A stretch of 64,000 nucleotides of DNA from a virus. The translations under genes and the position numbers were made by a program. The notes under the pieces are model-generated. The model did no database searches. It worked only from the letters and a program-made list of their open reading frames with translations, and had not been told where the DNA came from. Shown here one piece after another: positions 32,577 through 46,773 of the stretch. Every line of letters starts with the position of its first letter. The stretch's first letter is position 1. Location of the stretch: positions 47,568 through 111,567 of IMG/VR virus record IMGVR_UViG_3300050821_004356; one strand, given 5' to 3'.

Positions 32577-33633
32577 TTGTGGAATGTCTGCGTTCGACGA
32601 CATGCGTAGAATATTAGCCCTAATCTACGCAAAGATAAGCAACAACTGTCGTTTAAGCGACGTGTGTAACGCAGTTTGTTCGACTCGTTTCATCTATCGT
32701 TTCAGAATAGCTCTCAAGATATTGATATGCAAAGACATATATTAATCGAGAATCATATACTATCGCACATCACGAGGTCAGGCGTTTCGATGATCATCAA
32801 AACGATATCGATTTTTAATTCATTTTCGCTATTCATTCGCCCGCTAAAGAATAACTAGTTCTCTAGCGCTATCGATTTTGGGCTAAGTCGTTTGTTTTCT
32901 AGATGGGGTGAGAGAAATGCATCGGGGTTCGGGGCATCGAGGAGCGGTCGCGCCGCGCGCATCGGTTCGGGTAGAACAATAAGCGAAGACGCTGACGCTC
33001 ATTCTAAAGGAGTTATCGTTTGGCAATCAACTTGCTCCCCCAGCAATCACGTTGCCAAAAATCGATCCCGGGGGGACTGGCGGGTCGTAGTCGCCCCCAC
33101 CGCCTTCGACGGCGGGACGGCGCTTACGTGGTTCACCACATCGGATATACCGCCGTTACGGTAACGGGCTATCTCGATGTCCGGATAAATAGCCGGATCA
33201 ATTCGCCCACCCCACGATGAGCCGAAACGACTTAGCTTATTTATTGCCGATCTTTTTGCCGATCATATGGCCGGATCAAAACTAACATAAGTGTTAAATG
33301 TCAATATATGGGCACTTAACACAAATGTTAATTCCGGACCCCGGGTAGTCCGTCGGCCGCACTCACCCCAGGCCCATTCGCTATTCGCGAATTTCGAACG
33401 TGGTTTGTAATCAACGACTTCCCCACATTACGTAACGATGCCCCTAATTCACCGATCCAAAGGAAGGGGAGCACGCTCTTGTTTCATCTGCGACAGTCCC
33501 TTCTCAGATTGGAGTGAAGATGAAAGTCTATACGGTAAACTTTACTATCGGCGACGCACACGAAGGTTTCGACACTGAGTCCCTAGGACGCGCTCGTCCG
33601 ATTGAGTCAGGGTTCGACGGCTGGGAGTAAGAA

Positions 33634-33882
33634 ATGGAATATAAGCCAACATTTACGGGCGACAACATAAACGGAGGCACTTGGTATCCGACTGCCCCGA
33701 TCCCGAATACGTATCCGGTTCCGTACGTTTACCCAACACCTGTTGTTTATCCCGCACCGTGCCCAGGTTGTGGCGCATGTCCGGTTTGCGGACGAAAGGC
33801 AGCACCGTCTCAACCAACGATAATTTGGCAGAGCACGCACAACATGCAATCAAAGGTCCAAGAGGGAATAATCGATGGCTAG
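33634..33882 (+). CDS. Pro/Tyr-rich hypothetical protein
   Basis: GGAG RBS; CxxC..CxxC. Confidence 0.5.
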   Translation: MEYKPTFTGDNINGGTWYPTAPIPNTYPVPYVYPTPVVYPAPCPGCGACPVCGRKAAPSQPTIIWQSTHNMQSKVQEGIIDG

Positions 33883-34201
33883 TACTATTACAGGAAATCT
33901 CGGCGGCGCATCCGCTAGCGGCGTTCAAATCACTTGCTACTCCCCGCAAACGGGATTAATTATGAACGCGGCCGACGCGAGCGGCAACTTTTCGTTCGCA
34001 GGTCTTCCCGCAGCAACGTACACTTTGAAAGCCCAAGACGGTTCAGGCAAGGTCAACTATTTGGTGACGCACCAAGTCATCGCAGACGGTGTGACCACTT
34101 ATTCCAATATTAATTTTCAACCTCTCGCAGTAAACGCAGGCGGAACGCCTTTGTCCGGACAGTCGATTATTCCTAATCCGAACGGAACACCTACTTTCTA
34201 A
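33875..34201 (+). CDS. prealbumin/carboxypeptidase-regulatory-like beta-sandwich protein
   Basis: ADASGNFSFAGLPAATYTL. Confidence 0.65.
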   Translation: MASTITGNLGGASASGVQITCYSPQTGLIMNAADASGNFSFAGLPAATYTLKAQDGSGKVNYLVTHQVIADGVTTYSNINFQPLAVNAGGTPLSGQSIIPNPNGTPTF

Positions 34202-34348
34202 TGTCTCCTCTAGTAGCACTAACAGCCCTTGTTCTAGCCGTATTTGCTGTATTTATTTTCATTGTTCTTACAGAATAAAAATTTTGTAGAAGTTAAAATC
34301 TAAACGAATCCCCCGGCAGCAACTAACGGTCGGGCGAAATGAGTAAGC

Positions 34349-34774
34349 ATGAAAAAATGTGAGCACGGCAAGCGTCAACACTATTGTAGAGTTTGTGGCG
34401 ACAAGTATCTCTGTGAGCACGGCAGGCTTCGTTCTCGATGTAAGCAGTGCGTCGGTTTTATAACGGTGGCAAAGGATATGCATCGTGGTGCTAAGTTCAG
34501 AGCTAAACGAGACAACCTTCCTTTTGACATTACGGTTGAAGATATTTTGAAATTAATCGGTGATGGTGTATGCCCTGTTCTTGGTATTCGATACAACATC
34601 ACATCGAGTAAGATTGTTGATGCATCCGCTAATCTAGACAAGTTTATCCCGAGCAAGGGATATACAAGAGATAACTGTACGGTGCTGTCAAGGCTAGCAA
34701 ACGGCATAAAATCAAACGCCACAGCAGAACAGATTTATAAAGTAGCAGATTGGGTAAAACAAAAATCTAAATAA
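34349..34774 (+). CDS. HNH-like endonuclease with CEHG repeats (paralog of 13904-14473)
   Basis: Shared IGDGVCPVLG and SRLAN.IKSNAT segments. Confidence 0.8.
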   Translation: MKKCEHGKRQHYCRVCGDKYLCEHGRLRSRCKQCVGFITVAKDMHRGAKFRAKRDNLPFDITVEDILKLIGDGVCPVLGIRYNITSSKIVDASANLDKFIPSKGYTRDNCTVLSRLANGIKSNATAEQIYKVADWVKQKSK

Positions 34775-34811
34775 CATCGACAGCAGTGAGTGGTCGACGA
34801 AACGAGGGTAT

Positions 34812-35123
34812 ATGGACTTTGAGGTAACAGAAGTAAAGAAGCTAGGTAGTAAAGAACAGATGCCAAGTTTAAGCATAAGGCTAGAAAACGAATCGAACGG
34901 TCGTGTTTATACTATACACGCCGTCGTTCCATACAGCATAGATTTCGGACCAGTTCAAATTGGTCAAGTGTTTAAGTTTGAACGTGTCGACGACGAGCCC
35001 GCGAACAACAACATTATTGACAACTGGAAGCCCGACAAGGCGGCACCCAAGTTAACCGAGTCAGAGCGCAGAGAGTTTTTAAAAGCTAACGGTGTCAACG
35101 TTAAGAAAGGAGAGCGTGTGTGA
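34812..35123 (+). CDS. hypothetical protein
   Basis: GAGGG RBS. Confidence 0.55.
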   Translation: MDFEVTEVKKLGSKEQMPSLSIRLENESNGRVYTIHAVVPYSIDFGPVQIGQVFKFERVDDEPANNNIIDNWKPDKAAPKLTESERREFLKANGVNVKKGERV

Positions 35124-35919
35124 GGCTCCTCCTATTCCTAGCAATCATTGTTCTCGGCTTCATCGCCATCGCAGTGTGGTGCTCTCTAACAGGAGAGCCC
35201 GATTAACCGGGGAGGTCCCCGTGGTACAAACTATCAGGCCGTTGGAAGAGAGACTTAGAACCAACGTGTACAATGTTGAAGAGTTTCGAATGATCGTCGA
35301 GAAGATGGACCAAATACAATCTCAGGTTGAACCCGGTTGGCAAATAGTTTTAAATAACATGTTCATCAAAGACGCCGATATCCTAGTGAACGGAGAACCG
35401 AACTAATGAGCAACAATATTTTCGCGTACACAGCATTGGGAAGTAACTACCCTGAGTATATATCAGTGAATACGGATGACGGGCAAAACGTCATGGTTAC
35501 CGTGCGCGGCCCAGTACAGAACGGCAACTGTGGTCAGACGGTCTGTGTCCTGTTGTCACCTGAGCAAGTCGATAAATTTATAAGCGCGCTAATGATTTTC
35601 AAGTGTCAAGAACAGTCATGAGCAAAAAGAATATCGTTAGCCAAAAAGAAGTTGACGGAGGCAAGACGCACGTCACGTTCGAAGTTTCCGACGGCAGCCA
35701 CATGACATATGAGTTCAGCAAGCGCCAGTCCGGATATTTGAAACGTGGATCAGACCCCGCAAACTTATCGGGCAAGCTGGTGAAAGAAAAGAAATAGCGG
35801 GGTGTCCCGTGAAAAAGTTCCGCCTCCAAGTAAGAGGCTCGATGTACGAGATAGCAGTGAAGCCGCTGATTAGTATCTTTGGTTGGACCTTAGCGATTCT
35901 AAAGGCCAAGAGGATTTCA

Positions 35920-36209
35920 TGAACGAAACACACAATGGTAATCTCAACAGGTCCAAGGTCCCTGCGACCGGCGTTGAAGGTTTGAAGTCCACTGGTAAGA
36001 GTAATGGAACAGAGGCGACACTTAGGAAGGGCAACCTCCCCAAGGCATCCGCAGTTACGACCGTTGACCGCGACGCTAACAAAGGCAAGGCAATCAAGGC
36101 CGCCCAGAAGCAGAACACAAGCGACGAGAAGTCCTGGCCTCACGGGCGCAATGTCATTCCACAGTCCGGAGATAACGCGGTTCTAACTCACGACCAAGGC
36201 GGCGAGTAA
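35920..36209 (+). CDS. small basic disordered protein
   Basis: GAGGA RBS; TGKSN..EATLR.G motif shared with 52638-52964. Confidence 0.55.
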
Positions 36210-36619
36210 CAAATGTGGATGGCTGTTAAACAGCGCATCATCGGTTCGCAGCAACCACCGGTGGATAATATTTTGAACATAGATACAATTGTACGCATCG
36301 GTCCAAACAGCCTTGGCTGTTACATTAAATTCCTAGACGGTTCGGAAATAAGTGTTGCCGACGGATTTCAAGAGATAGCAGCGGTACTTTTGCAGGCACA
36401 AGGAAAATGATTCATGGAGTACCACATCTCGGATCAAAACCTGACAGTTGTCCACGGCGGCCATAAACAGAAAGACCTCGGGCATCAACGGACGTACCCA
36501 ATTTTTATAGATGACGAGACGGGCGAAGAGCTAATAAGTTTAAACGGCCAGGTACTTCAAAAGCTTTCTAATTTACAATTCGATACCAGCAGACGGGAAA
36601 CCGTTAAGAGGGGATAACA

Positions 36620-36790
36620 ATGATCATCGCAATCGCAGCATTAGTAGTATCGTTCGGCGCAGGTTTTGGCGTTGGTCGCGTGAAGAACGTAAGCAAGTTG
36701 AAAGCAGTTAGCGCCGAGATCGCAAAGGTCGAAGCATCAGCTAGTGCAGAAGTTTCTAAATTAATTGCAGCCATAAAAGCCAAGTTGTAA
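36620..36790 (+). CDS. small membrane protein
   Basis: GAGGGG RBS, MIIAIAALVVSFGAGFGVG. Confidence 0.55.
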   Translation: MIIAIAALVVSFGAGFGVGRVKNVSKLKAVSAEIAKVEASASAEVSKLIAAIKAKL

Positions 36791-36798
36791 AATAAAGC

Positions 36799-36827
36799 TT
36801 GACAAGCATCCGGTACCATGCTAGGAT
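36799..36827 (+). promoter_or_regulatory. sigma70-type promoter (leaderless transcript)
   Basis: TTGACA-17-TAGGAT, with ATG 6 nt after the -10. Confidence 0.7.
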
Positions 36828-36833
36828 GCTTTT

Positions 36834-37091
36834 ATGTGGCTGACATTTAAAGAGCGGATTATCGTGCCGACAAATGTAGAGCGCCTCAAAAAGGTTCTCC
36901 CAGAGAAGACGGTCGAAGCTCTTGTCGAGGCTGCTGAAAAGGTCCAAGACAAGTTCGACGCCGATCCCAGCTTGAAAGATTTGTACCCCGGGTATAGTTC
37001 GTTGCTGAACGAGATCGCGAAGAACGTAAAGACTCCGGAAGCGGACGAAAAGAAGTTTGAAATAGTGCTTGACAAACGATCTAACCCGTAG
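36834..37091 (+). CDS. hypothetical protein
   Basis: ORF directly after the promoter. Confidence 0.55.
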   Translation: MWLTFKERIIVPTNVERLKKVLPEKTVEALVEAAEKVQDKFDADPSLKDLYPGYSSLLNEIAKNVKTPEADEKKFEIVLDKRSNP

Positions 37092-37097
37092 TACGAT
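37069..37097 (+). promoter_or_regulatory. sigma70-type promoter upstream of the RNA cluster
   Basis: TTGACA-17-TACGAT. Confidence 0.75.
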
Positions 37098-37376
37098 AGC
37101 ATCACGGTCGAGGACGATAGCAGAAAGCGACCACGCAGAAGCGACAATGCCTCGGAGGGTGGCGACCATTACCGCCAAATTTTATGATCATATACATCTG
37201 TAAAGATAAATGCAACCACATCAGTGGTATCTTTACTACCGAAGAGGTAGCAAAGAAGCATGCTGAGAAAATAGGCAATAAAGTCGAACCTTGGGTTGTG
37301 TTTGAGACAGATGATCGTTTTAGGTATACAGAAGACGGCGGGATGTATATCGTTTAAAAGTTTAGCAACAAGAGTT

Positions 37377-38086
37377 AGGCGCGGCAAGCCGAGGATGCTC
37401 GGTTTGGGAGACATCCCTTAATGTCCCGCCTTTAAGTTCAAATCGTGGGCTCCTGTCCGGAGCGGACAAACACGAGGCGGTCAGGTGGTTCACCGAACAC
37501 GTGACCCAACTGGGTTGTACTAGTGGGCTTATAGTGACGGGCTTTCTGACTTATGAAACGAACCAAAAGTTTTGAAGTAAAAGTTTGAGCAGAACAGCAT
37601 GTCAGACGGGTCGGAGAAATCTGATTACGTTATCAACGGCGTACACCTGAAATGGTGCCAGCACTCTGCTCATAAAAGTTTGTCCACGGTGAGTACTCGA
37701 TTGCGTTCAGCCGGATCGAGAATCTGCGTTAACTTCGGTTACGGGAACTCCCGACTGAGTGGGCAAAACGAGTCATGCAGGGTGAACTGAGCGCCCGATT
37801 GTGGCATACATAGTAGGGGAGAACGCCAGTATCTGTGCTCATGACGCGGCGGAATGCAACATCCGCAAAATATTATCCCTCGGGCACTGTGACCGTAAGG
37901 CACAGACGGAAGTACGATGGAGTCGCCCGATATTATTACTTGCTGCTTGCCGGTGAGACGCTAAGGCTCTGCAGGGCCAAGCTGGTGAGTTTGCTAGCCG
38001 TGTCTTTGTTATTCCGATCCTATGGTCGGTATTGCATAGAACGCCAATTACGAGAAGGCGTTCGGTTCGAAACGTTCTCGTGGTTG
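37377..38086 (+). ncRNA. array of unidentified structured RNA elements
   Basis: No credible ORF; successive closed multistem domains (e.g. TGAGCAGA/TCTGCTCA, TTGTCCAC/GTGGGCAA, GTCATG/CATGAC, TCGGGC/GCCCGA), some separated by AAAAGTTT. Confidence 0.55.
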
Positions 38087-38113
38087 AATACATTTTAGTA
38101 ACACGGGGGAAGT

Positions 38114-38479
38114 ATGAACGTAGACGTAAACTATGCACTGGCCGCACTTGTTTGCGGCTTCGCAGGCGGCGTTGATTCAGTTCTTACTTGCTACGGAATA
38201 ACGGTCGCAGGTTTTGTGGAAGCGAATCCGTTGTATAAGATTCTCCCCACGAGTGTCAGTAACTTTATTTTGAAGAGCGCGTTCGGCGTGTTCTTGTGGG
38301 GTGGCTTTCGGGTAATCGGCACCGGAGTTATGGCTAAGGTTTTAGCTGATCACGGTTTCTATACGAACACCGGTTCCTTGTTCTTTTGGATTCCGGCGGC
38401 TGGCTTGGTAGCTTTGAACGTTCGCAACGGGTTGATGATCCTAAAGGCCAAGAAAGCGGTCGCAGCGGTTAAGAAGTAA
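38114..38479 (+). CDS. membrane protein (DUF5658-like)
   Basis: D..LT.YG...G..EANPL motif, three TM segments. Confidence 0.6.
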   Translation: MNVDVNYALAALVCGFAGGVDSVLTCYGITVAGFVEANPLYKILPTSVSNFILKSAFGVFLWGGFRVIGTGVMAKVLADHGFYTNTGSLFFWIPAAGLVALNVRNGLMILKAKKAVAAVKK

Positions 38480-38489
38480 AAGTTTCGAT

Positions 38490-38565
38490 GGTGTCCGTAG
38501 TGTAGTGGCTAGCACGCGGGCCTGTGAAGCCTTAAGGTTGGTTTCGAATACCAAGGGACACCCCA
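38490..38565 (+). tRNA. tRNA-His(GUG)
   Basis: Cloverleaf, G-1/C73, encoded CCA. Confidence 0.9.
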
Positions 38566-38584
38566 TATTTTTAAAGATAAGTGC

Positions 38585-38613
38585 TTGACAAAGTTTTAAG
38601 ATCGCGATACAAT
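38585..38613 (+). promoter_or_regulatory. sigma70-type promoter for the tRNA operon
   Basis: TTGACA-17-TACAAT. Confidence 0.85.
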
Positions 38614-38625
38614 GTTTTTGTAAAT

Positions 38626-38704
38626 CGAGGAATGGGGAAGTCTGGCCGTTCCCGCTGCTTTCGGAAAGCAGAGATCGTTGATTCGAATTCAACTTCCTCG
38701 ACCA
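38626..38704 (+). tRNA. tRNA-Pro(CGG)
   Basis: Cloverleaf, CCA. Confidence 0.9.
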
Positions 38705-38706
38705 GT

Positions 38707-38780
38707 CGGGCGTTCTGATAGTGGTAGTCTCCGTGCTTTGGAAGCATGTGGCGTGTGTTCGATTCACACATGCCCGACCA
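38707..38780 (+). tRNA. tRNA-Pro(UGG)
   Basis: Cloverleaf, CCA. Confidence 0.88.
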
Positions 38781-38973
38781 TTTTATTAAGTTTGGACCCA
38801 ACATGTCTGATCATGACAGACGCTCGCGCGCTGGTAAGGGCACCGGGTCCAATTGCGATAACCTTAAAATTCTGACCGGTACGGTTTAGAAGCCGGTATC
38901 GCAACGAGCCTCGGCGTCGGCTCACTAAAATATAGACGCCAGGATTTAAGTCCAGCACGGAGAAGCTATTGTG

Positions 38974-39080
38974 TTGGCGGATCAGACGGAAATGTGGGTT
39001 CGAATCCCACGGGCTATAACAGGTGAGTCAGCCGTGTATACGGCACCTGAGCCTTTAGTGCAATGGTAGCACGCCGTCAA
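38974..39080 (+). ncRNA. circularly permuted tRNA-like RNA (YrlA/Y-RNA-like)
   Basis: T-arm GTGGG-TTCGAAT-CCCAC precedes a closed acceptor-like stem and D-arm GTGC-AATGGTA-GCAC. Confidence 0.7.
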
Positions 39081-39089
39081 ATTTTCTAT

Positions 39090-39174
39090 TCCCGAGTGGC
39101 GGAATGCATACGTAACGCGTTTAGACCGCGTCGCTCGAAAGAGATTGTGGGTCCAAGTCCCACCTCGGGAACCA
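39090..39174 (+). tRNA. tRNA-Leu(UAG)
   Basis: Class II cloverleaf, CCA. Confidence 0.88.
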
Positions 39175-39181
39175 ATTTTGT

Positions 39182-39256
39182 GGCTCTCTCGTTCAATGGA
39201 GAGGACGTTCGGTTTCTACCCGAACAATGTCGGTTCGATTCCGACGGGGGCTTCCA
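39182..39256 (+). tRNA. tRNA-Arg(UCU)
   Basis: Cloverleaf, CCA. Confidence 0.9.
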
Positions 39257-39262
39257 AGTTTT

Positions 39263-39338
39263 GGGTCTATCGTCCAAAGGGACAGGGCTCGGGTTTCCTA
39301 AACCCGCAATCACGGTTCGATCCCGTGTGGACCCTCCA
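39263..39338 (+). tRNA. tRNA-Arg(CCU)
   Basis: Cloverleaf, CCA. Confidence 0.9.
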
Positions 39339-39344
39339 GTTTAT

Positions 39345-39420
39345 GGGCTTCTCGTCTAACAGGACAAGGCTCTGGTCTTCGAAACCAGCTATCGCGATTC
39401 GAGTTCGCGGAGGCCCTCCA
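39345..39420 (+). tRNA. tRNA-Arg(UCG)
   Basis: Cloverleaf, CCA. Confidence 0.88.
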
Positions 39421-39425
39421 GCTTT

Positions 39426-39501
39426 GAACTTGTCATCTAACGGGACAAGGTGCAGCCCTGCGAAGGCTGATATCACGGTTCGAGTCCGTGCAGGTTCACC
39501 A
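39426..39501 (+). tRNA. tRNA-Arg(GCG)
   Basis: CAGCC-CTGCGAA-GGCTG anticodon arm, CCA. Confidence 0.88.
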
Positions 39502-39509
39502 TTTTTAAT

Positions 39510-39594
39510 CCGCTGCTGGCGAAACGGCAGACGCATCCGCCTCAAGAGCGGACGCCTAAACAGCGTGAAGGTTCGAATCCTTCGCGGCGGACCA
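39510..39594 (+). tRNA. tRNA-Leu(CAA)
   Basis: Class II cloverleaf, CCA. Confidence 0.9.
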
Positions 39595-39602
39595 AGTTCT
39601 GT

Positions 39603-39681
39603 GGGTGGTCCCGCGCACCGCGCGGCTCTGTGATGAAGCTAGACTAGTCACAGGATGAGTGGTGAGATTCCACGACTTCCC
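39603..39681 (+). ncRNA. tRNA-like RNA without CCA (8/4 geometry)
   Basis: GGGTGGTC/GACTTCCC closing stem, GTGG-TGAGATT-CCAC T-like arm, two further hairpins. Confidence 0.5.
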
Positions 39682-39692
39682 AGATTTTCAAT

Positions 39693-39782
39693 TGTCGGTT
39701 GCGAAGGTTCGTGGCAGAGTCTTATAAACTCTTCGGGCCAGATAAGCCTTGCCGGAAAGATCGTTACTTTCATCGACAACCA
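39693..39782 (+). tRNA. atypical tRNA with UAU anticodon and long variable arm
   Basis: TGTCGGT/ATCGACA acceptor, AGAGT-CTTATAA-ACTCT, GAAAG/CTTTC T-stem, ACCA. Confidence 0.7.
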
Positions 39783-39786
39783 ATTT

Positions 39787-39870
39787 GAGCGTGTGGCGGA
39801 AAGGCATACGCAGGGCACTTAAAATGCCCCGTCGAAAGACATGAGGGTCCGAATCCCTCGGCGCTCACCA
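39787..39870 (+). tRNA. tRNA-Leu(UAA)
   Basis: Class II cloverleaf, CCA. Confidence 0.9.
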
Positions 39871-39875
39871 AGTTT

Positions 39876-39949
39876 GCATGAATCGACAAGTGGTAAGTTA
39901 GCTGTTTGCAAAACAGCCATCAGTGGTTCGATTCCACTTTCATGCTCCA
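39876..39949 (+). tRNA. tRNA-Cys(GCA)
   Basis: Cloverleaf, U73, CCA. Confidence 0.9.
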
Positions 39950-40031
39950 AGTTTGGGCACCTGACACCTAACAGTGGCAGGGGAAAGTCCAAAACGTTTT
40001 CGCACGGTCAACGAAAGACGGTGCTACATTT

Positions 40032-40310
40032 TGGTAGCGTAGACGAACGCGGCGAGAAACCCGAGAGGGCTATAAGCCGAGGAAATTCAGGCCACATCTC
40101 AACATCGAACGGTGGAAGCTGCCGGACGCGTAAGCGTACAAGTAAGGCTCGATACCGAAAGGTCATTCAAGTCGAGTAACTCTTTTCGGGTGTAAGCGCA
40201 AATAGGCTCTGAGAACTTGTTGAGTTTGATGAAGAGCGGGTAGCGTGCTTCGCGAAAGCGACTAGAGAGGAATGTTCGTTCTAGACAGAAGCCTGATTAT
40301 AGCGTCACCA
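40032..40310 (+). ncRNA. rnpB: RNase P RNA (compact)
   Basis: GAGGAAATTCAGGC / ACAGAAGCCTGATTA (P4 with bulged U), P2 GACGAACG/TGTTCGTT, TGTAAGCGCAAATAG, GGGTAG..GCTT, AGAGGAATG. Confidence 0.82.
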
Positions 40311-40323
40311 AAATAATTTTCAA

Positions 40324-40399
40324 GTGTCTGTAGCTCATTCAGTAGAGCACTCGGCTCTTACCCGAGGGGTGGTTGGGGCAGAGCCAACCAGACGCACCA
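40324..40399 (+). tRNA. tRNA-Lys(CUU) with atypical T-loop GGCAGAG
   Basis: Cloverleaf, CCA. Confidence 0.82.
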
Positions 40400-40401
40400 A
40401 T

Positions 40402-40476
40402 GGAGTGCTAGTGTCAAAGTAGCACAGCGGCCTTTTAAGCCGACGAGTGTTGGTCCAAGTCCAACGCGCTCCACCA
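40402..40476 (+). tRNA. tRNA-Lys(UUU)
   Basis: Cloverleaf, CCA. Confidence 0.85.
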
Positions 40477-40485
40477 ATTTTCTGT

Positions 40486-40561
40486 AGCCTGTTAGCAAAC
40501 TGGCCGTATGCACCTCGCCTACACCGAGGCCGGAAGAGTTCGATTCTCTTACGGGCTACCA
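40486..40561 (+). tRNA. tRNA-Val(UAC)
   Basis: Cloverleaf with C33, CCA. Confidence 0.85.
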
Positions 40562-40670
40562 ATTTTCGATTGCCCGGTTGCTTACGGCGACGGTGTAGAT
40601 GAGTGTGTCGGAACCGAGAGGCCGTAAATACTCCACGGCGGCATTCACCGCAATCGAATTAATTTTCTGT

Positions 40671-40745
40671 GGCGATGTCATCTAGTGATTAGGATGCTTG
40701 CTTCTCAAGCAAGTCACGCGGGTTTGAATCCCGCCGACGCTACCA
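40671..40745 (+). tRNA. tRNA-Glu(CUC)
   Basis: Cloverleaf, CCA. Confidence 0.85.
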
Positions 40746-40754
40746 AGTTTCAGT

Positions 40755-40828
40755 GCCGCTATCTGCTATGGATAGGCAACGAGACTTTCAATCTCGTAGA
40801 CAGGGTTTGAGTCCCTGTAGCGGTACCA
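40755..40828 (+). tRNA. tRNA-Glu(UUC)
   Basis: Cloverleaf, CCA. Confidence 0.85.
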
Positions 40829-40838
40829 ATTTTACAGT

Positions 40839-40914
40839 GGGCAGTTAGTGTTAAATGGGAGCACGTGTCGCTTGCACCGACAAAGTGAGGGTTCGAATCC
40901 GTCACAGTCCACCA
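40839..40914 (+). tRNA. tRNA-Ala(UGC)
   Basis: G3:U70 pair, CCA. Confidence 0.85.
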
Positions 40915-40925
40915 ATTTTTCCTGT

Positions 40926-41001
40926 TGTCGCGGAGCACATGTGGACGGGCGCTCGCTCGATAAGCGAGAGGTAGGTGGTTCGAATCCACCGGCGACAACC
41001 A
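40926..41001 (+). tRNA. tRNA-Ile(GAU) with atypical D arm
   Basis: CTCGC-TCGATAA-GCGAG anticodon arm, canonical T arm, CCA. Confidence 0.78.
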
Positions 41002-41017
41002 ATTTTTGCGGTGACAT

Positions 41018-41260
41018 ATGACGATAGCAGACGCAGCATCAGTTGCGGCACTAGCAGTCGATTTGATTGCCTTGTGGTTCCTGATTGGGATTTGGAAAGA
41101 TGATCATGCGATGAGAGTCGCATCGGAAGAGTCTTTGAAGGCCCAGTTAGAGTATCTTGGATTGCGCCGTAAATGGTACGAAGGCCGCACCAAGAAAAAG
41201 GACGAAAAGAATGTCGCTCAGTCTAGACCAGAAGATGGCACTGACGCGAACAGTCTGTAA
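41018..41260 (+). CDS. small membrane protein within the tRNA cluster
   Basis: N-terminal TM helix; fills a gap between tRNAs. Confidence 0.55.
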   Translation: MTIADAASVAALAVDLIALWFLIGIWKDDHAMRVASEESLKAQLEYLGLRRKWYEGRTKKKDEKNVAQSRPEDGTDANSL

Positions 41261-41324
41261 CATTCTTGGAGTCATCATCTCAATCATCTACGTTGTGTGG
41301 GTGATGAGTAAATAAATTTTCAAT

Positions 41325-41411
41325 TGTAGGGTCGACTAGCGGCCGATGTCGCGGGTCTCATAAGCCCGATGCGAAAGCACACCGTGGGTTCGAATCCCAC
41401 CTCTGCAACCA
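41325..41411 (+). tRNA. tRNA-Met(CAU), initiator-like, with long variable arm
   Basis: CGGGT-CTCATAA-GCCCG; variable arm TGC-GAAA-GCA; CCA. Confidence 0.82.
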
Positions 41412-41418
41412 ATTTTGA

Positions 41419-41493
41419 GCGAGGCTGATGTTAGTGGTAGCATGTCAGTCTTCCAAACTGAACGGACGAGTTCGAGTCTCGTGCTTCGCTCCA
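41419..41493 (+). tRNA. tRNA-Gly(UCC)
   Basis: Cloverleaf, CCA. Confidence 0.9.
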
Positions 41494-41498
41494 ATTTT

Positions 41499-41572
41499 GC
41501 TTTGTTAGTTCAACGGTAGAACGCGTCCTTGGTAAGGATGAGGTAAAGGTTCAATTCCTTTACGAAGCTCCA
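41499..41572 (+). tRNA. tRNA-Thr(GGU)
   Basis: Cloverleaf, CCA. Confidence 0.9.
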
Positions 41573-41579
41573 GTTTTGA

Positions 41580-41655
41580 GCACGGCTCATACAGCGGCCT
41601 AGTATGCGAAGCTTGTACCTTCGACACGTTGGTTCAAATCCAGCGCTGTGCTCCA
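41580..41655 (+). tRNA. tRNA-Thr(UGU)
   Basis: Cloverleaf, CCA. Confidence 0.88.
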
Positions 41656-41757
41656 ATTTCTAGAACGTGGAACCGCGAGTCTGTGGAATGGCGGATAGTG
41701 CAGACCTGAATAATGCTCCGGTACTCCGGAGACGCGAACGCCCCACGAGATTTATGA

Positions 41758-41831
41758 GCACTGCTAGTCTAGTGGCAGGACACTCCCCTCGTAAGGCAGA
41801 GGCAACTGTTCGATTCAGTTGCGGTGCTCCA
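41758..41831 (+). tRNA. tRNA-Thr(CGU)
   Basis: Cloverleaf, CCA. Confidence 0.85.
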
Positions 41832-41904
41832 AGTTTTGTGCTGTGACATAAAACACATCGGTGAGAGGCGTCCATAGACCCACCGAGGCACAAAAGTTTT
41901 CTGA

Positions 41905-41978
41905 GCGATGTTGGTATAGTGGTAGCACGAGACCTTGCCAAGGTCTAGGCACCGTTTCGATTACGGTACGTCGCTCCA
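41905..41978 (+). tRNA. tRNA-Gly(GCC)
   Basis: Cloverleaf, CCA. Confidence 0.88.
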
Positions 41979-41987
41979 ATTTTCTGT

Positions 41988-42076
41988 GGATGGTTAGCTC
42001 AAGCGGCAACGACACTTGGCTGTAAACCAAGCGGTCCTAGCGACCTTCCGAGGTTCGAGTCCTCGACTATCCACCA
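41988..42076 (+). tRNA. tRNA-Tyr(GUA)
   Basis: Class II cloverleaf, CCA. Confidence 0.88.
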
Positions 42077-42087
42077 TAATTTTCTAC

Positions 42088-42175
42088 TGGGGTGTGGCTC
42101 AATTGGTACAGCACCTGACTGTTAATCAGGCAGAGTTAACGCTCATTATAGGTTCGAATCCTATTGCCCCAGCCA
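42088..42175 (+). tRNA. tRNA-Asn(GUU) with long variable arm
   Basis: CCTGA-CTGTTAA-TCAGG; variable arm GAGT-TAAC-GCTC; G73, CCA. Confidence 0.85.
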
Positions 42176-42183
42176 TTTTAAAC

Positions 42184-42261
42184 GGAGATGTCGCGTAGAG
42201 GCCTATCGCACTCCCCTGTCACGGGAGATCATCGTGGGTTCGAATCCCATCATTTCCGCCA
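42184..42261 (+). tRNA. tRNA-Asp(GUC)
   Basis: Cloverleaf, G73, CCA. Confidence 0.9.
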
Positions 42262-42269
42262 TTTTCAAC

Positions 42270-42344
42270 AGGTCGGTAGTGTAACGGTAACATCACGCAC
42301 TCCAAACGCGTCGGATGGGGGTTCGAGTCCCTCCTGACCTGCCA
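42270..42344 (+). tRNA. tRNA-Trp(CCA)
   Basis: Cloverleaf, CCA. Confidence 0.9.
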
Positions 42345-42352
42345 ATTTTTAC

Positions 42353-42443
42353 GGAAGGTTGACGGAACCTGGCTAACGTATAGGTTTGCTAAACCTAAGT
42401 CAACCGAAAGGTTGTTTGTGTTCAAATCACAAACCTTCCGCCA
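42353..42443 (+). tRNA. tRNA-Ser(GCU)
   Basis: Class II cloverleaf, CCA. Confidence 0.88.
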
Positions 42444-42448
42444 TTTAC

Positions 42449-42532
42449 GGAGGATGCCGCTCAAGGGGGCAATCCGGTTTGAACCCGGAGGGCGCTGTAA
42501 GGCGCGGTGTTCGATTCATCCTTCCTCCTCCA
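42449..42532 (+). tRNA. tRNA-Ser(UGA), 8/4 fold
   Basis: GGAGGATG/CTTCCTCC acceptor, 4-bp T stem GGTG/CATC, long variable arm. Confidence 0.78.
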
Positions 42533-42625
42533 TATTCTACGCTCGTGGCTGAAATGCCGTTTGGTGTAGACACACCCTAACGGGGACTGAGCACCGTCGC
42601 TAACAGTATAAAATTGGGGCGACAT

Positions 42626-42699
42626 CCCTTGTAGGTGTAACGGTAGCACCTTCCGTTGAAGCCGGAAAGGACGTGGTTCAATTCCACGACTCGGGACCA
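42626..42699 (+). tRNA. tRNA-Phe(GAA) with mismatched acceptor stem
   Basis: TTCCG-TTGAAGC-CGGAA, T arm, ACCA. Confidence 0.75.
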
Positions 42700-42707
42700 T
42701 TTTCAAT

Positions 42708-42783
42708 TGGGATGTAGTTTAACTGGCAAAATAGTCGGCTTTGAACCGACCAGATGAAGGTCCGAATCCTTCCGCCCCAACCA
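42708..42783 (+). tRNA. tRNA-Gln(UUG)
   Basis: U1-A72, cloverleaf, CCA. Confidence 0.88.
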
Positions 42784-42792
42784 ATTTTCAAT

Positions 42793-42868
42793 TGCCAAGT
42801 GGCGCAACTGGTAGCGCAGGCGGCTCTGAACCGCAAGGCTGATCGTTCGAATCGATCTTTGGCAACCA
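42793..42868 (+). tRNA. tRNA-Gln(CUG)
   Basis: U1-A72, cloverleaf, CCA. Confidence 0.88.
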
Positions 42869-43012
42869 ATTTTCAATTCAGGTCACTATGAGACGGACCT
42901 GGAGATTCCCCAAATAATTTAAAAGTGAGGGAAGATGCATGACCGAATAGATAAATTGAAAAATCATATGTTTTATGGTTCGACTTATCAAAGCGAACTA
43001 AGGGAGATACTT

Positions 43013-43231
43013 ATGGCATTCGCAGACGCAATCGCAAAGCTTCAAGCAGACGTCGCAACGTTGATCGCCGAGAACGGCCCAGCCGCAGTCGCAGCGGCCG
43101 TAGCAGCGAAAGATGCATCCGACGCAGCCGCAGTTGCCGCAGTTGACGCAACCGTGGTAGCAGCATTGACACCGGCAGCACCGGCCCCGGCTCCAGTAGC
43201 ACCAGCGGCCCCGGCAGCACCGGCAGCTTAA
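43013..43231 (+). CDS. Ala/Pro-rich small coiled-coil protein
   Basis: GGGAG RBS then MAFADAIAKL; followed by a hairpin at 43241-43260. Confidence 0.6.
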   Translation: MAFADAIAKLQADVATLIAENGPAAVAAAVAAKDASDAAAVAAVDATVVAALTPAAPAPAPVAPAAPAAPAA

Positions 43232-43492
43232 TAAGTTACCCCCGACGTTAACTCGTCGGGACAATTTCTGGGTAGCTCAAAGACGTCGATAAGAGCACTC
43301 GTTCCCTGTTTAAGTCGCAAGACGCAAATCGAGAGTGTGGAGACTTAGGCGCACCTCCCCCAGAATTTTTAGGAGCGAAATGACCACAACTAAAAAGGTT
43401 TTGCTCAGCATAGCGGTAGGCCTAGTTATCGGTTTAGGTTTTTTATTTTGGCACGTCGCGGAAGTATTTAACGCCGTTCAGTAAGAGGTTCC

Positions 43493-43912
43493 ATGAGCGT
43501 TCTCCATAAGGTCGAAGTAGGCGCAGAGATTTATATTATCGCGGCGATGTCGTTGATCGCAGTATCAGCGTCTATTGCAGCGATCAGACTGCTTATTGAA
43601 AAGAATAAACCAGTATTTAACTATCCTGCTGATGTACCTACAGCCGAGGCCAAGGCCGCAGCTGAAGGTTATCTTCATCGGTGCCTAGTGGCTCTCGATA
43701 TTTTTATGAACGTCGTCTTCTTCGCAGGTAAGCAGGGTGAGACAATGTCTACGCATGCTTGGATCGCGTCGCAGTCAGGCGCGCTCTGGGGCAAGTTGAT
43801 GAACCGTTGGCTCGACGGCTTCCAAGCGAACCACGGCCCGCAAGCAGCATCGGGAGATTTAGAGCGCGCGCAAGGCGAAGTGAACCGCCTTAGAAAGATT
43901 TTAGGAGTTTAG
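43493..43912 (+). CDS. conserved-type phage membrane protein
   Basis: LVALD..N....G...ET.S pattern; GAGG RBS. Confidence 0.6.
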   Translation: MSVLHKVEVGAEIYIIAAMSLIAVSASIAAIRLLIEKNKPVFNYPADVPTAEAKAAAEGYLHRCLVALDIFMNVVFFAGKQGETMSTHAWIASQSGALWGKLMNRWLDGFQANHGPQAASGDLERAQGEVNRLRKILGV

Positions 43913-44003
43913 TTTCAAACGCCGAGCAAAGGCACCCGAAAGGGTACGGCGTAATTACGAGCGCAAGATGCTTTGCTAAGGCGTGCTCGTCGAGTAACTG
44001 GGT

Positions 44004-44408
44004 ATGAAGATTCTTCGTAAGTTCCCTTACTGGTATTTGATCGCAGTACCTGCCCTGCTATTCGGCTTGGGCGTTGTGTCCAATCAATCGGTCTTGGTTG
44101 CCAACCACGGTAAGTTCCCGGTGATGCTGAGCCAAGGCATGTACTATAAATACTGTACCCCACAGTCCGAGGAAGACGAAGACGCCCCTAGTATCTCTTG
44201 TATCAAAGGCGGCGAGATGATCGACGAGACGCATAGCGTTATGGGTCCGAACTCACACTTGAAAGTATTGTCGGACATCATACCCATCGGGTCAACTATT
44301 TACAGTATCGGAGATGGCCTTCTTGAATTAGGTTCGTGGCTGCTTTCTTATACGCTCATCGCGTGGCTATTCCTGACAATTCGAAAGTTAGCAACTTTGG
44401 TGAACTAA
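44004..44408 (+). CDS. DUF5317-like membrane protein
   Basis: N..V..ANHG.FPV, LSDII, SIGD. Confidence 0.65.
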   Translation: MKILRKFPYWYLIAVPALLFGLGVVSNQSVLVANHGKFPVMLSQGMYYKYCTPQSEEDEDAPSISCIKGGEMIDETHSVMGPNSHLKVLSDIIPIGSTIYSIGDGLLELGSWLLSYTLIAWLFLTIRKLATLVN

Positions 44409-44713
44409 TGACGGCGCACCACACAACGCAACATACTCAGGTTCGTAATCAGAACCACGGCGCACAAAGAGACAATCATGGTCGTAGAGACCCGCGCTCT
44501 TTCGACGCAGGTACGCACCATCGCGTCGAAGAGAGACGTTATCGAGATGGTCATTGGAACGTCCGATTCGAAGGATACTGGTTTGAGTGCAGTGTGTGGC
44601 CTGCTTGGGCGCTTTATGAAGACGTATATTTTGTAGAAGGTCCGAACGGAGTATTTTTCGTGTATGAGTATAATAATCCGGCTATGTTCCTTCAAGTTTA
44701 TTTAGTTGATTAA
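44408..44713 (+). CDS. His/Arg-rich hypothetical protein
   Basis: TAATG-coupled start. Confidence 0.5.
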   Translation: MTAHHTTQHTQVRNQNHGAQRDNHGRRDPRSFDAGTHHRVEERRYRDGHWNVRFEGYWFECSVWPAWALYEDVYFVEGPNGVFFVYEYNNPAMFLQVYLVD

Positions 44714-44772
44714 GTTTTACTAAGATTAAAGTAGTAAATTTTTAGCCACTTCGGTGGCATAGAGGAAACAAC

Positions 44773-45846
44773 GTGTCTATTACTTCACAGCTTTTGACTG
44801 GCGCAAATTACGCGCTCAACGCGTATTCTGGTATCACGAACTCCGGTCTTACCGTTATTTCTGGCGGTAACATCGGGTCTTTCCCGACGTCGTCTATTAC
44901 AGGCTTCCCCCCAGGCCTGCTTTCTCCTCCAGCAGTTATAGACAACGCTGATTCGTTGCAAGCGCGTCTAGATGCTCTTTCCGCATACAATACGTTTGCG
45001 GCCCTCGCGTTTACTTCATTGGGTGCATCCTCAGTTAATCTCTCCGTATCTGGCAACGGCTCTTCGGCTTCGACTTACACTCCCGGTAACTACTCTGCAG
45101 GAACTAGCATGGATATTCCTACTAGTATCACACTAGATGCGCAAGGAAACCCGAACGCTGTGTTCATCTTTAAAGCAGGCAGCACAGTTACCCTTGAAAG
45201 CGGGGCCTCTGTTTTGCTCGTCAACGGAGCCGCAGCACAAAACGTTGTGTGGCTCGTAGGCACTTCATTCACGTCTATCTTTGCTGGCACATCAGTTATG
45301 GTCGGCAACATCTTGGCGCAAGCCTCTGCCACATTGGGCGGCGGTGTTCTAAGCGGTCGTGTCCTAGCAGGTCTAAACAATTCGAGCGGTGCGATTACTA
45401 TCGCGACTGCGCTTGCTTTGACAGTTCCAGTATCGGGCGGTGGGGTCGCTCCACCTCCTACGAGGGCTGGCGGTGCGGCTCAGTGTCTTATCTCTCAGAA
45501 TTTGGGAGCGTCGGTTTTGTTAGCTTGGCCGCAGAATAGTCCCGGAGTTCAAGGACAATTCTTAGACCTAGTCCAAATCGTTGACGAAGGTGGAAATTTT
45601 GTACTCAACGTCGACTTTAGCGGTGCTGTTCACTATCCCGCAATTCTACCAACTAATGGCACGAGAATCGGCCAATATCAAACGAGATTTGGTCTGTCTG
45701 GTAGTGGTCTTCCCGTAACTACACTTTCGCAAGTAATGCATGACGCTTTCACTAATCCACAATTTCTTGACATCATTCAAATAATCAATGTGGGAGGAAA
45801 TATCTCCTATTGGTGGAATTCCGAAGGCGTCGCGACCGGTTCCTAG
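44773..45846 (+). CDS. DUF3494 ice-binding-like protein with C-terminal extension
   Basis: ITGFPPG, ITLDAQGNPNAVFIFKAGS, VLLVNGA.AQNVVW.VG.S, GNILA, GRVLA. Confidence 0.88.
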   Translation: MSITSQLLTGANYALNAYSGITNSGLTVISGGNIGSFPTSSITGFPPGLLSPPAVIDNADSLQARLDALSAYNTFAALAFTSLGASSVNLSVSGNGSSASTYTPGNYSAGTSMDIPTSITLDAQGNPNAVFIFKAGSTVTLESGASVLLVNGAAAQNVVWLVGTSFTSIFAGTSVMVGNILAQASATLGGGVLSGRVLAGLNNSSGAITIATALALTVPVSGGGVAPPPTRAGGAAQCLISQNLGASVLLAWPQNSPGVQGQFLDLVQIVDEGGNFVLNVDFSGAVHYPAILPTNGTRIGQYQTRFGLSGSGLPVTTLSQVMHDAFTNPQFLDIIQIINVGGNISYWWNSEGVATGS

Positions 45847-45856
45847 TTTTGCGTAG

Positions 45857-45874
45857 TCTCCTCGGAGGCTTTTT
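45857..45874 (+). terminator. intrinsic terminator
   Basis: GTCTCC-TC-GGAGGC hairpin followed by TTTTT. Confidence 0.55.
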
Positions 45875-45939
45875 ACGTGGCAACGCGACTGTCCAATTTG
45901 TAAAACACAGCTTCAAAAGAAAACAGGTACAATAGTAGT

Positions 45940-46755
45940 TTGCCCATGCTGTGCGTGGGTATGGAAATAATTATGGATGATAAAGCCGCCAATATAATGG
46001 CAAATATTATTGCTCGTCGCGCCACAGAAATGGAAAAAGAAGCCTTGGACGTTATCACAGGACCCCAAGGCCCGCGCGGAGAGCGAGGTATCCAAGGACC
46101 TATAGGTCCAGTTGGACCTACGGGTCTCAAAGGTGATAGAGGTCCAGCAGGAGAGAAAGCGGAGCGCGGAGAAAGAGGACCAGTCGGAGAGGCAGGTCCT
46201 ATAGGACCTACCGGTCCCGCTGGCGCTAAAGGTGACCGAGGTCTCACAGGACCCGCAGGCGAAGACGGTAAACACGGCCGCGACGGTAGAGATGCCCAAG
46301 TTCCAGAATTCGTAATAGGCGAAGCCGTTGTAGGTACTGAAGCTAAGGCAACGCTACATCGCAATGAGAGCGGCGTTTATATTTTGAGTCTAATTCTCCC
46401 GAGAGGAGAGCGCGGCGTCAAGGGCGAACCAGGTCCAACCGGTCTTCGAGGTTTTCCGGGAAAAGATTCGGTTACACCTGGTCCAAAAGGCGATCCGGGG
46501 AAGTCAATAACAGGTCCAGCTGGCGCTGATTCGACGGTCCCTGGCCCACAAGGTATTCCTGGTAAAGACGGACTGAGCATTGACGAGATCAAACAACTCG
46601 TCGTCGATATTTTGTCAGACGCTGGTTTGTTATCGGAACAAGCCCAAAAACTTGCAACTATTCGTGCATTATTAAAAAAAGCGATACATCAAGCCGACGC
46701 TCGCCACGCTTTTCAAATTTCGGAAATAATCAGGGAAGTAGATAAACTGTTTTAG
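45940..46755 (+). CDS. collagen-like (Gly-X-Y) protein
   Basis: Two long GXY tracts and a helical C-terminus; true start may be ATG 45961 or 45973. Confidence 0.85.
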   Translation: MPMLCVGMEIIMDDKAANIMANIIARRATEMEKEALDVITGPQGPRGERGIQGPIGPVGPTGLKGDRGPAGEKAERGERGPVGEAGPIGPTGPAGAKGDRGLTGPAGEDGKHGRDGRDAQVPEFVIGEAVVGTEAKATLHRNESGVYILSLILPRGERGVKGEPGPTGLRGFPGKDSVTPGPKGDPGKSITGPAGADSTVPGPQGIPGKDGLSIDEIKQLVVDILSDAGLLSEQAQKLATIRALLKKAIHQADARHAFQISEIIREVDKLF

Positions 46756-46773
46756 TTGAATTTACGAGATTAG

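Follow-up and report, generated by a model that had tools for sequence, protein, structure and literature searches.

A 64,000-nucleotide (nt) stretch of DNA from a soil phage, called the window below (bases 47568-111567 of IMG/VR record IMGVR_UViG_3300050821_004356), carries within its own tRNA array a genuine, selected gene for a ribonuclease P (RNase P) RNA, a reduced variant of the bacterial type A that is found in RNA libraries. RNase P RNA serves in the maturation of tRNA 5' ends and is typically 350-400 nt long in bacteria. Under permissive filters, cmscan matches positions 40031-40315 of the window (+ strand) to RF00010, the bacterial type-A family, over model positions 1-367 (90.0 bits, E 3.3e-28), and a search of the whole phage, whose 111,567-bp record is complete with direct terminal repeats, returns the same single match (E 2.2e-29). 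A prediction made earlier from the letters alone had placed a compact phage RNase P RNA at 40032-40310, inside the phage's own tRNA operon, and had named a covariance-model search as its check. That reading holds because of the covariance-model match, covariation in 40 of 72 pairs, retention in the lineage and presence in RNA libraries; its further suggestion, that a small specificity domain suits atypical T-loops or orphan RNAs, found no such backing.

Permissive filters were needed because the element scores ten bits below the Rfam cut-off: the gathering score of RF00010 is 100 bits, and an Rfam scan of the window at gathering thresholds reports tRNAs only, with RNase P absent. Judged by sequence, a full-length RF00010 match at E 3e-28 leaves homology to type-A RNase P RNA in no doubt. 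The minimum free energy of the single sequence lies near that of shuffled sequence (z -0.5 to -1.6), an uninformative value that is expected because the RNA is a pseudoknotted tertiary architecture.

The alignment contains helices P1-P11 and P15-P18, both pseudoknots (P4 and P6) and the core catalytic motifs, including the P1, P2 and P3 that the original prediction had drawn. The parts, all on the + strand, are as follows (CR, conserved region; double changes are counted over eight sequences).

40031-40315, +: whole RNase P RNA-like gene, 285 nt; RF00010 match, fold backed by covariation
40031-40040, +: P1 5' strand, pairing with 40302-40311; from cmscan, double changes in 4 of 10 pairs
40042-40048, +: P2 5' strand, pairing with 40274-40280; from cmscan, double changes in 3 of 7 pairs
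40050-40079, +: P3 hairpin; length varies in relatives, inner part 6-43 nt across the clade
40079-40092, +: CR-I (GAGGAAAUUCAGGC) and P4 5' strand (40084-40092, bulged U at 40087)
40100-40104, +: P6 pseudoknot 5' strand, pairing with the P17 loop at 40218-40222; extendable to 40098-40104/40218-40224
40105-40189, +: reduced specificity domain; from cmscan and covariation
40105-40109, +: P7, pairing with 40185-40189
40110-40124, +: P8
40125-40139, +: P9, with a GUAA loop
40140-40183, +: P10/P11 and a stub P12 (3 bp) with a GAAA loop
40193-40246, +: J5/15 and P15-P16-P17; from cmscan, columns invariant in eight sequences
40239-40241, +: L15 GGU; GGGU invariant in eight sequences
40250-40261, +: P18 hairpin, UCGC-GAAA-GCGA; from cmscan
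40264-40299, +: J18/2 (AGAGAGGAAU), P2 3' strand and CR-V (ACAGAAGCCUGAUUA, 40285-40299), the last including the P4 3' strand (40291-40298)

The hallmarks by which a type-A RNA is recognized are in place. P4, with its bulged U and its CR-I and CR-V flanks, forms between AAU[U]CAGGC (40084-40092) and GCCUGAUU (40291-40298), and relative to the bacterial consensus AAG[U]CCGGG/CCCGGCUU three of its pairs are swapped on both strands (G-C to U-A, C-G to A-U and G-C to C-G); the compensated P4 that had been proposed is thus borne out, with three compensated differences. The P6 pseudoknot is present, and so is the P15-P16-P17 arm, whose L15 carries GGU. The CUCAACA/UGUUGAG pairing first offered as P6-like corresponds to 40098-40104 with 40218-40224, of which the central five pairs covary in relatives. 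The AA at 40194-40195 in J5/15 we take to be the counterpart of A248/A249 in the E. coli RNA.

A fold under selection in related phages

Pattern scans, nhmmer and cmscan yielded seven distinct relatives of the element (L004, which is identical to L052, and L233, L248, L271, L263, L272 and L305). Their lengths run from 281 to 351 nt and their RF00010 scores from 73 to 103 bits, and all lie inside tRNA arrays. In the five relatives tested, the terminase is only 33-47% identical to that of the window phage, and three of these five records are 95-100% complete; because the gene is retained across this distance, the comparison indicates that it has been kept through deep divergence of the phage lineage.

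The structure was taken from the Rfam alignment, with P4 and P6 as pseudoknots, and projected on the clade alignment; the P5/P7 boundary was shifted by one base from the model alignment, a register that covariation backs. Over three sequences 96.4% of cells are paired and 18 of 74 pairs show double changes. Over all eight the paired share is 96.0%, against 32-39% when partners are slid by one to three columns, compensatory double changes occur in 40 of 72 pairs, and not one of 500 shuffles reaches any of the observed measures. These changes are spread over the helices (P6, 4/5, with every cell paired; P7, 4/5; P11/12, 5/5; P15, 4/4; P16, 3/5; P17, 3/5), and only two P10/P11 remnants, three pairs together, have none. 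P4 has double changes in two of its eight pairs and is fully (100%) paired in all eight clade members. The unpaired hallmarks are invariant in the eight sequences: GAGGAAA, the bulged U, the AA of J5/15, AAUAGG, GGGU in L15, AGAxGAAUG and ACAxAA...UUA. CR-I and CR-V are aligned as well, in line with the motifs that had been described as resembling conserved regions.

P18 is found only in the window and in L271 among the eight. In L004, L248, L263, L272 and L305 a J2/4 hairpin is inserted between P2 and CR-V, capped by a GNRA loop in at least L004, L248 and L305, and L233 has neither P18 nor this hairpin. The J2/4 hairpin looks like a relocated substitute for P18.

Other routes to relatives gave little. 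Two of the 117 matches of a 15-mer scan were true and the rest were chance, and the terminase as sole query in IMG/VR returned two short contigs. One terminase relative came from GenBank, that of Tunturiibacter phage Tunturi_3, which has no RNase P RNA; the hint of an Acidobacteriota host that it provides was set aside as too weak, at 27% terminase identity. A search of 185,579 bacterial and archaeal species genomes for the clade signature gave no true match and revealed no host, prophage copy or donor lineage; the lone hit was due to chance, lying inside an open reading frame (ORF) with neither RNase P nor tRNA.

A reduced specificity domain

The specificity domain of the window element is incomplete. 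P7-P11 are kept and covary, but P13, P14 and the J11/12 core are absent, and a full P7-P14 domain with CR-II and CR-III is not found: of the J11/12 core (ACAGAAA...), 12 consensus positions are missing, and 25 nt stand in place of the next 77 model positions (P12-P14), in agreement with the shortened domain of the original prediction. Because some accepted bacterial RNase P RNAs also lack single helices, the incomplete domain marks a variant and not a non-homologue. The interior of P7 measures 75 nt in the window and 77-152 nt in the relatives, and the apical module beyond P11/P12, at 19 nt, is smaller than in any relative (21-96 nt). The end of this module, CAUU(C/G)(A/G)AG, at 40164-40171 in the window, is invariant in all eight, and no other unpaired part of the reduced P12 module is invariant; the window copy contains UUCAA, the letters of a tRNA T-loop. 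The stretch may be a remnant of the elbow-docking site.

It had been suggested that so small a domain may suit this phage's odd T-loops. Canonical TTCRANY T-loops, however, are present in 25 of the 32 tRNAs that ARAGORN finds in the array; the remaining seven deviate, as does the tRNA at 40324-40399 found by Rfam only, and strongly atypical loops occur in just two. These are tRNA-Ile(UAU) (39693-39782), with a long variable region and the T-loop AUCGUUA, and the Lys(CUU)-like tRNA at 40324-40399, with GGCAGAG on a GGUUGG/CCAACC stem. Across 85 non-redundant phage arrays, ribozyme size shows no relation to the share of canonical T-loops (rho -0.03, p 0.77), to encoded CCA (rho -0.01) or to U(-1) (rho 0.03). 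The idea of T-loop adaptation is unsupported rather than refuted by this correlation, because the comparison is coarse: ARAGORN prefers canonical loops, and ribozyme size was gauged by proxy. The encoded-CCA share varies sharply among the 85 arrays, lying mostly near 0 or 1 (among the smaller arrays listed).

Setting, transcripts and likely function

The protein genes found in the phage include those for a large terminase, an SU10-type portal, a primase-polymerase, a UvrD-type helicase, a tail-fibre protein and a major head protein. Between the leftward early and replication genes and the rightward structural genes sits a plus-strand RNA island that holds the ribozyme and the following features.

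38491-42868, +: tRNA array, same strand as the ribozyme; 32 tRNA genes (ARAGORN) and one found by Rfam only
40324-40399, +: Lys(CUU)-like tRNA; Rfam tRNA match (40324-40396) of 43.7 bits, fold and flanks, missed by ARAGORN

Twenty-two tRNAs of the window lie within 1.5 kb of the ribozyme. The element accordingly belongs to what we call the array-embedded class, an RNase P RNA on a viral contig with at least two tRNA genes on the same strand within 1.5 kb. All 32 ARAGORN tRNAs encode their 3'-CCA, and the Rfam-only tRNA is likewise counted as CCA-encoding; U stands at position -1 in 23 of the 32, and the tRNA-His has the bacterial G-1. Spacers between tRNAs are mostly 2-11 nt and highly uniform. 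Those at 38565-42868 follow one template, CCA-A(A/G)UUUUC-N-(A/G)U, and the 3' flank of the ribozyme has the same template. The 3' end of the ribozyme (...CACCAA-AAUAAUUUUCAAG) shares this spacer format, and an invariant ...CCA(A) terminates its P1; at 40324, 9-13 nt past P1, the Lys(CUU)-like tRNA begins.

Between the tRNA-Cys and the ribozyme, the stretch 39950-40030 forms two hairpins (39952-39993 and 40002-40024; fold z -2.4), into which RNA contigs from two of the runs described below (X3 and X4) reach. The array also has gaps of 98-323 nt (38781-39089, 39595-39692, 40562-40670, 41002-41324, 41656-41757 and 42444-42625) with no Rfam match and no convincing ORF.

Three soil metatranscriptome runs (X3-X5, under three study codes) contain 53-93% of the element's sampled words; runs with small shares (X6-X24) were excluded from the depth analysis. 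In each of the three the bin of the element is the deepest of window positions 33000-49000 (X3, 4.8; X4, 34.3; X5, 2.7), with X4 at 11.6 or less elsewhere in that range, whereas a DNA run is flat at a depth of 11-15 and one 4.7-kb DNA contig joins phage genes and the element. DNA carry-over is possible, yet it does not explain the at least threefold excess of X4 over the flanks. The RNA assemblies comprise a discrete 278-nt contig in X5 (40025-40302), a 540-nt contig in X3 (39966-40504) and an adapter-bounded fragment in X4 (39982-40299). We rejected the contig ends (39982/40299, with adapters, and 40025-40302) as RNA termini, since contigs cannot show termini.

The original prediction saw no rnpA in the window, and this extends to the complete 111,567-bp phage: RnpA (PF00825) has no match there at E up to 10, nor in five relatives at E up to 1, and the protein-only RNase P families PRORP (PF16953) and HARP/PIN_5 (PF08745) have no match in the phage at E up to 1. 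Because the phage genome lacks a protein subunit, host RnpA is the most likely partner if the RNA acts as RNase P in vivo.

We infer catalysis, partnership with host RnpA and an order of processing, and think it probable that the RNA is the catalytic subunit of a functional enzyme: transcribed along with the tRNAs, it would join host RnpA and mature the tightly packed, CCA-encoding tRNAs of the phage. Because no promoter-like site was found on the + strand immediately 5' of the ribozyme, it would be transcribed together with the array, probably from the plus-strand promoter-like sites at 36799, 37069 and 38585 (near 36.8, 37.1 and 38.6 kb). In that precursor it would fill a tRNA-like slot, and its own 3' end would be freed or set when the next tRNA is cut at its 5' end (40324). 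Assembled with host RnpA, it would cut the 5' leaders of about 33 closely packed phage tRNAs and so add or secure processing capacity for a polycistronic array with 2-11-nt spacers.

Because the elbow-reading module (J11/12, P13 and P14) is lost, recognition would lean on the catalytic domain, with L15 GGU meeting the encoded 3'-CCA and the A248 equivalent reading U(-1), and on RnpA, which would bind the uniform U-rich leaders of the tRNAs. In type-A RNase P RNAs the GGU of L15 pairs with the CCA of the substrate and A248 reads N(-1), and in E. coli RNase P separates polycistronic tRNA transcripts with short spacers; the array would therefore make heavy demands on precisely what the retained catalytic domain offers. 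The substrates, with CCA in 32 of 32, U(-1) in 23 of 32 and uniform short spacers, fit an enzyme driven by its catalytic domain.

Several points weigh against this reading. The RF00010 score is below the gathering threshold, P1 is mismatched in some clade members (83% paired), and the specificity domain lacks its tRNA-elbow-reading portion, a deficit that weakens substrate binding in bacterial enzymes; the RNA may thus be a poor enzyme or one that depends strongly on protein. The X4 fragment starts 49 nt upstream of the element and is without the 3' strand of P1, and the RNA runs were picked for containing this stretch, their assembled contigs giving one depth each and neither ends nor strand.

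The same features have been weighed against other roles. As a weak or inert RNA that binds host RnpA, the element could starve or retarget host RNase P, and such a sponge would accord with a phage that has no rnpA and must draw on its host's, with the element being the deepest part of the stretch in the RNA libraries and with a reduced substrate-reading domain. A sponge, however, needs no bulged-U P4, no A248/A249 equivalents, no L15 GGU and no covarying P6 and P15-P17, yet all of these are kept, and a phage that makes about 33 tRNAs itself requires RNase P activity rather than its removal; we consider this role distinctly improbable. It is also unlikely, if slightly less so, that the RNA is an RNase P-derived ribozyme that works alone or with an unrecognised phage protein, or that acts on the non-tRNA units of the island or on other phage RNAs. 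Loss of the elbow-reading module, a few tRNAs with non-canonical T-loops, 180-450-nt gaps between tRNAs and non-tRNA stretches in tRNA-like slots, such as 39950-40030 (z -2.4), could be taken that way, but no candidate partner protein was identified, the nearby substrates are mostly unremarkable tRNAs that have CCA, U(-1) and a canonical T-loop, and ribozyme size is unrelated to T-loop make-up in the 85 arrays.

That the element is a neutral relic or an artefact, whether a recently captured and decaying host rnpB or a chimeric assembly, could be suspected from its sub-threshold score and from its being shorter than bacterial genes. Covariation already contradicts this, with 40 compensatory pairs and invariant core motifs across eight lineages. 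Also against it are retention of the gene while the terminase diverged to 33-47% identity, a clade signature that has no true match among the bacterial and archaeal species genomes, the even DNA depth, the 4.7-kb DNA contig that bridges phage genes and the element, and a record that is a complete genome with direct terminal repeats. We give this explanation almost no credence.

A wider class and known systems

The window element is one of many. Scanning metagenomes with CR-I and CR-V as anchors at compact spacing gave at least 119 loci, 44 of them within dense tRNA arrays, and RF00010 matches of 48-158 bits for 14 of 20 array loci among the matches listed. Three P4 positions that the pattern leaves free are always paired in the 46 elements made up of these 44 loci, the window and L004: pair 68-358 is G-C in 32, C-G in 9, U-A in 2 and U-G in 3; pair 71-356 is C-G in 20, A-U in 13, G-C in 11 and U-A in 2; and pair 74-353 is A-U in 31, G-C in 10, C-G in 3, G-U in 1 and U-A in 1. 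MAFFT could not align the interior of 15 diverse members, and the evidence at the level of the class consists of these anchored P4 counts and the clade alignment.

Applied to IMG/VR at four spacings, the CR-I and CR-V anchors picked out 110 contigs, with the ribozyme array-embedded in at least 67; from the smallest size to the full bacterial one the array-embedded share is 15/17, 16/20, 21/38 and 15/35. Phage RNase P RNAs therefore span all sizes, with the window copy at the small end, and we rejected the notion that all phage copies are compact. Five array contigs carry phage portal, helicase or CCA-adding-enzyme families (L231, L249, L245, L220 and L244). In L244 the CCA-adding enzyme gene adjoins the tRNA array, and on one metagenome contig a tmRNA (L182:396-777; RF00023, 56 bits) shares a small tRNA array with a compact RNase P RNA-like element.

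Compactness alone is no mark of a phage, because compact type-A RNAs also lie outside tRNA arrays (74 metagenome matches, for example L142, L143, L156 and L222-L224, with CR-I to CR-V spans of 208-236); presumably they are the cells' own genes in bacteria with small genomes. Blastn against 50,697 GenBank phage records found no match for the window element or for three compact relatives, and three full-size phage copies match only unannotated contigs of uncultured 'Bacteriophage sp.' and bacterial-looking records. No RNase P RNA of a cultured, annotated phage was found among the GenBank phage records, and the full-text literature, the scope being papers outside subscription, yielded no report of a virus-encoded RNase P RNA.

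On balance, and with somewhat less confidence than for the role of the single RNA, we favour the view that tailed phages carry a family of trans-acting, array-embedded RNase P ribozymes of their own, which would work with host RnpA and make tRNA maturation independent of host rnpB, and that this soil lineage is shedding the elbow-reading module (apical part from 96 to 19 nt) while keeping a triply compensated P4. By the usual view RNase P is a cellular housekeeping enzyme. If this view is right, a virus-encoded RNase P, undescribed as far as our searches reach, would extend the viral 'translation toolkit' of tRNAs, tmRNA and synthetases to a ribozyme, and one would have to ask how host RnpA comes to be shared with, or captured by, an RNA of viral origin. 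This single phage clade would also provide type-A ribozymes that nature has pared down step by step (281-351 nt), useful for studying the purpose of the specificity domain. There is an annotation gap as well: pipelines miss such genes because they score just below the Rfam threshold or sit in unannotated contigs.

Compared with bacterial type A (RF00010; E. coli M1 RNA, encoded by rnpB, and the P RNA of Thermotoga maritima), the phage RNA has P1-P11 and P15-P18, the P4 and P6 pseudoknots, CR-I, CR-IV and CR-V, the bulged U of P4, L15 GGU for CCA and GNRA loops on P9 and P18 in common. It differs in being 285 nt against about 350-400, in lacking P13, P14 and the J11/12 core, in having a P12 stub of 3 bp, in the three swapped P4 pairs, in its score of 90 bits and in being a viral gene within a tRNA array, in a genome with no rnpA. 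Minimal RNase P RNAs include the Pyrobaculum type T (RF02357), the 276-nt RNA of Mycoplasma fermentans and engineered RNAs reduced to the catalytic domain, and they show that RNase P can work with a much reduced or absent specificity domain, through the catalytic domain and protein. These are cellular (archaeal or type B) or synthetic, whereas the phage RNA keeps P7-P11 and loses the apical P12-P14 only; also in contrast to the minimal cellular RNAs, size varies within one phage clade (apical module of 19-96 nt).

The plastid and cyanelle RNase P RNAs are type-A-derived genes in small genomes (PMC4264200). The likeness seen there is a type-A-like RNA in a small non-cellular genome, presumably with its protein encoded elsewhere; unlike these organellar descendants of a cyanobacterial gene, the window gene is viral, and its sequence affinity to them does not go beyond the family core. 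Among phages, tmRNA and the GOLLD and ROOL RNAs also lie in or beside tRNA arrays, GOLLD and ROOL adjoining phage tRNA genes (PMC6582537), but they are unrelated families and none is an RNase P RNA. In the paradigm of the T4 tRNA operon, polycistronic tRNA precursors of the phage are substrates of host RNase P (PMC11143913) and the enzyme is wholly the host's, whereas the phage described here supplies the catalytic RNA itself.
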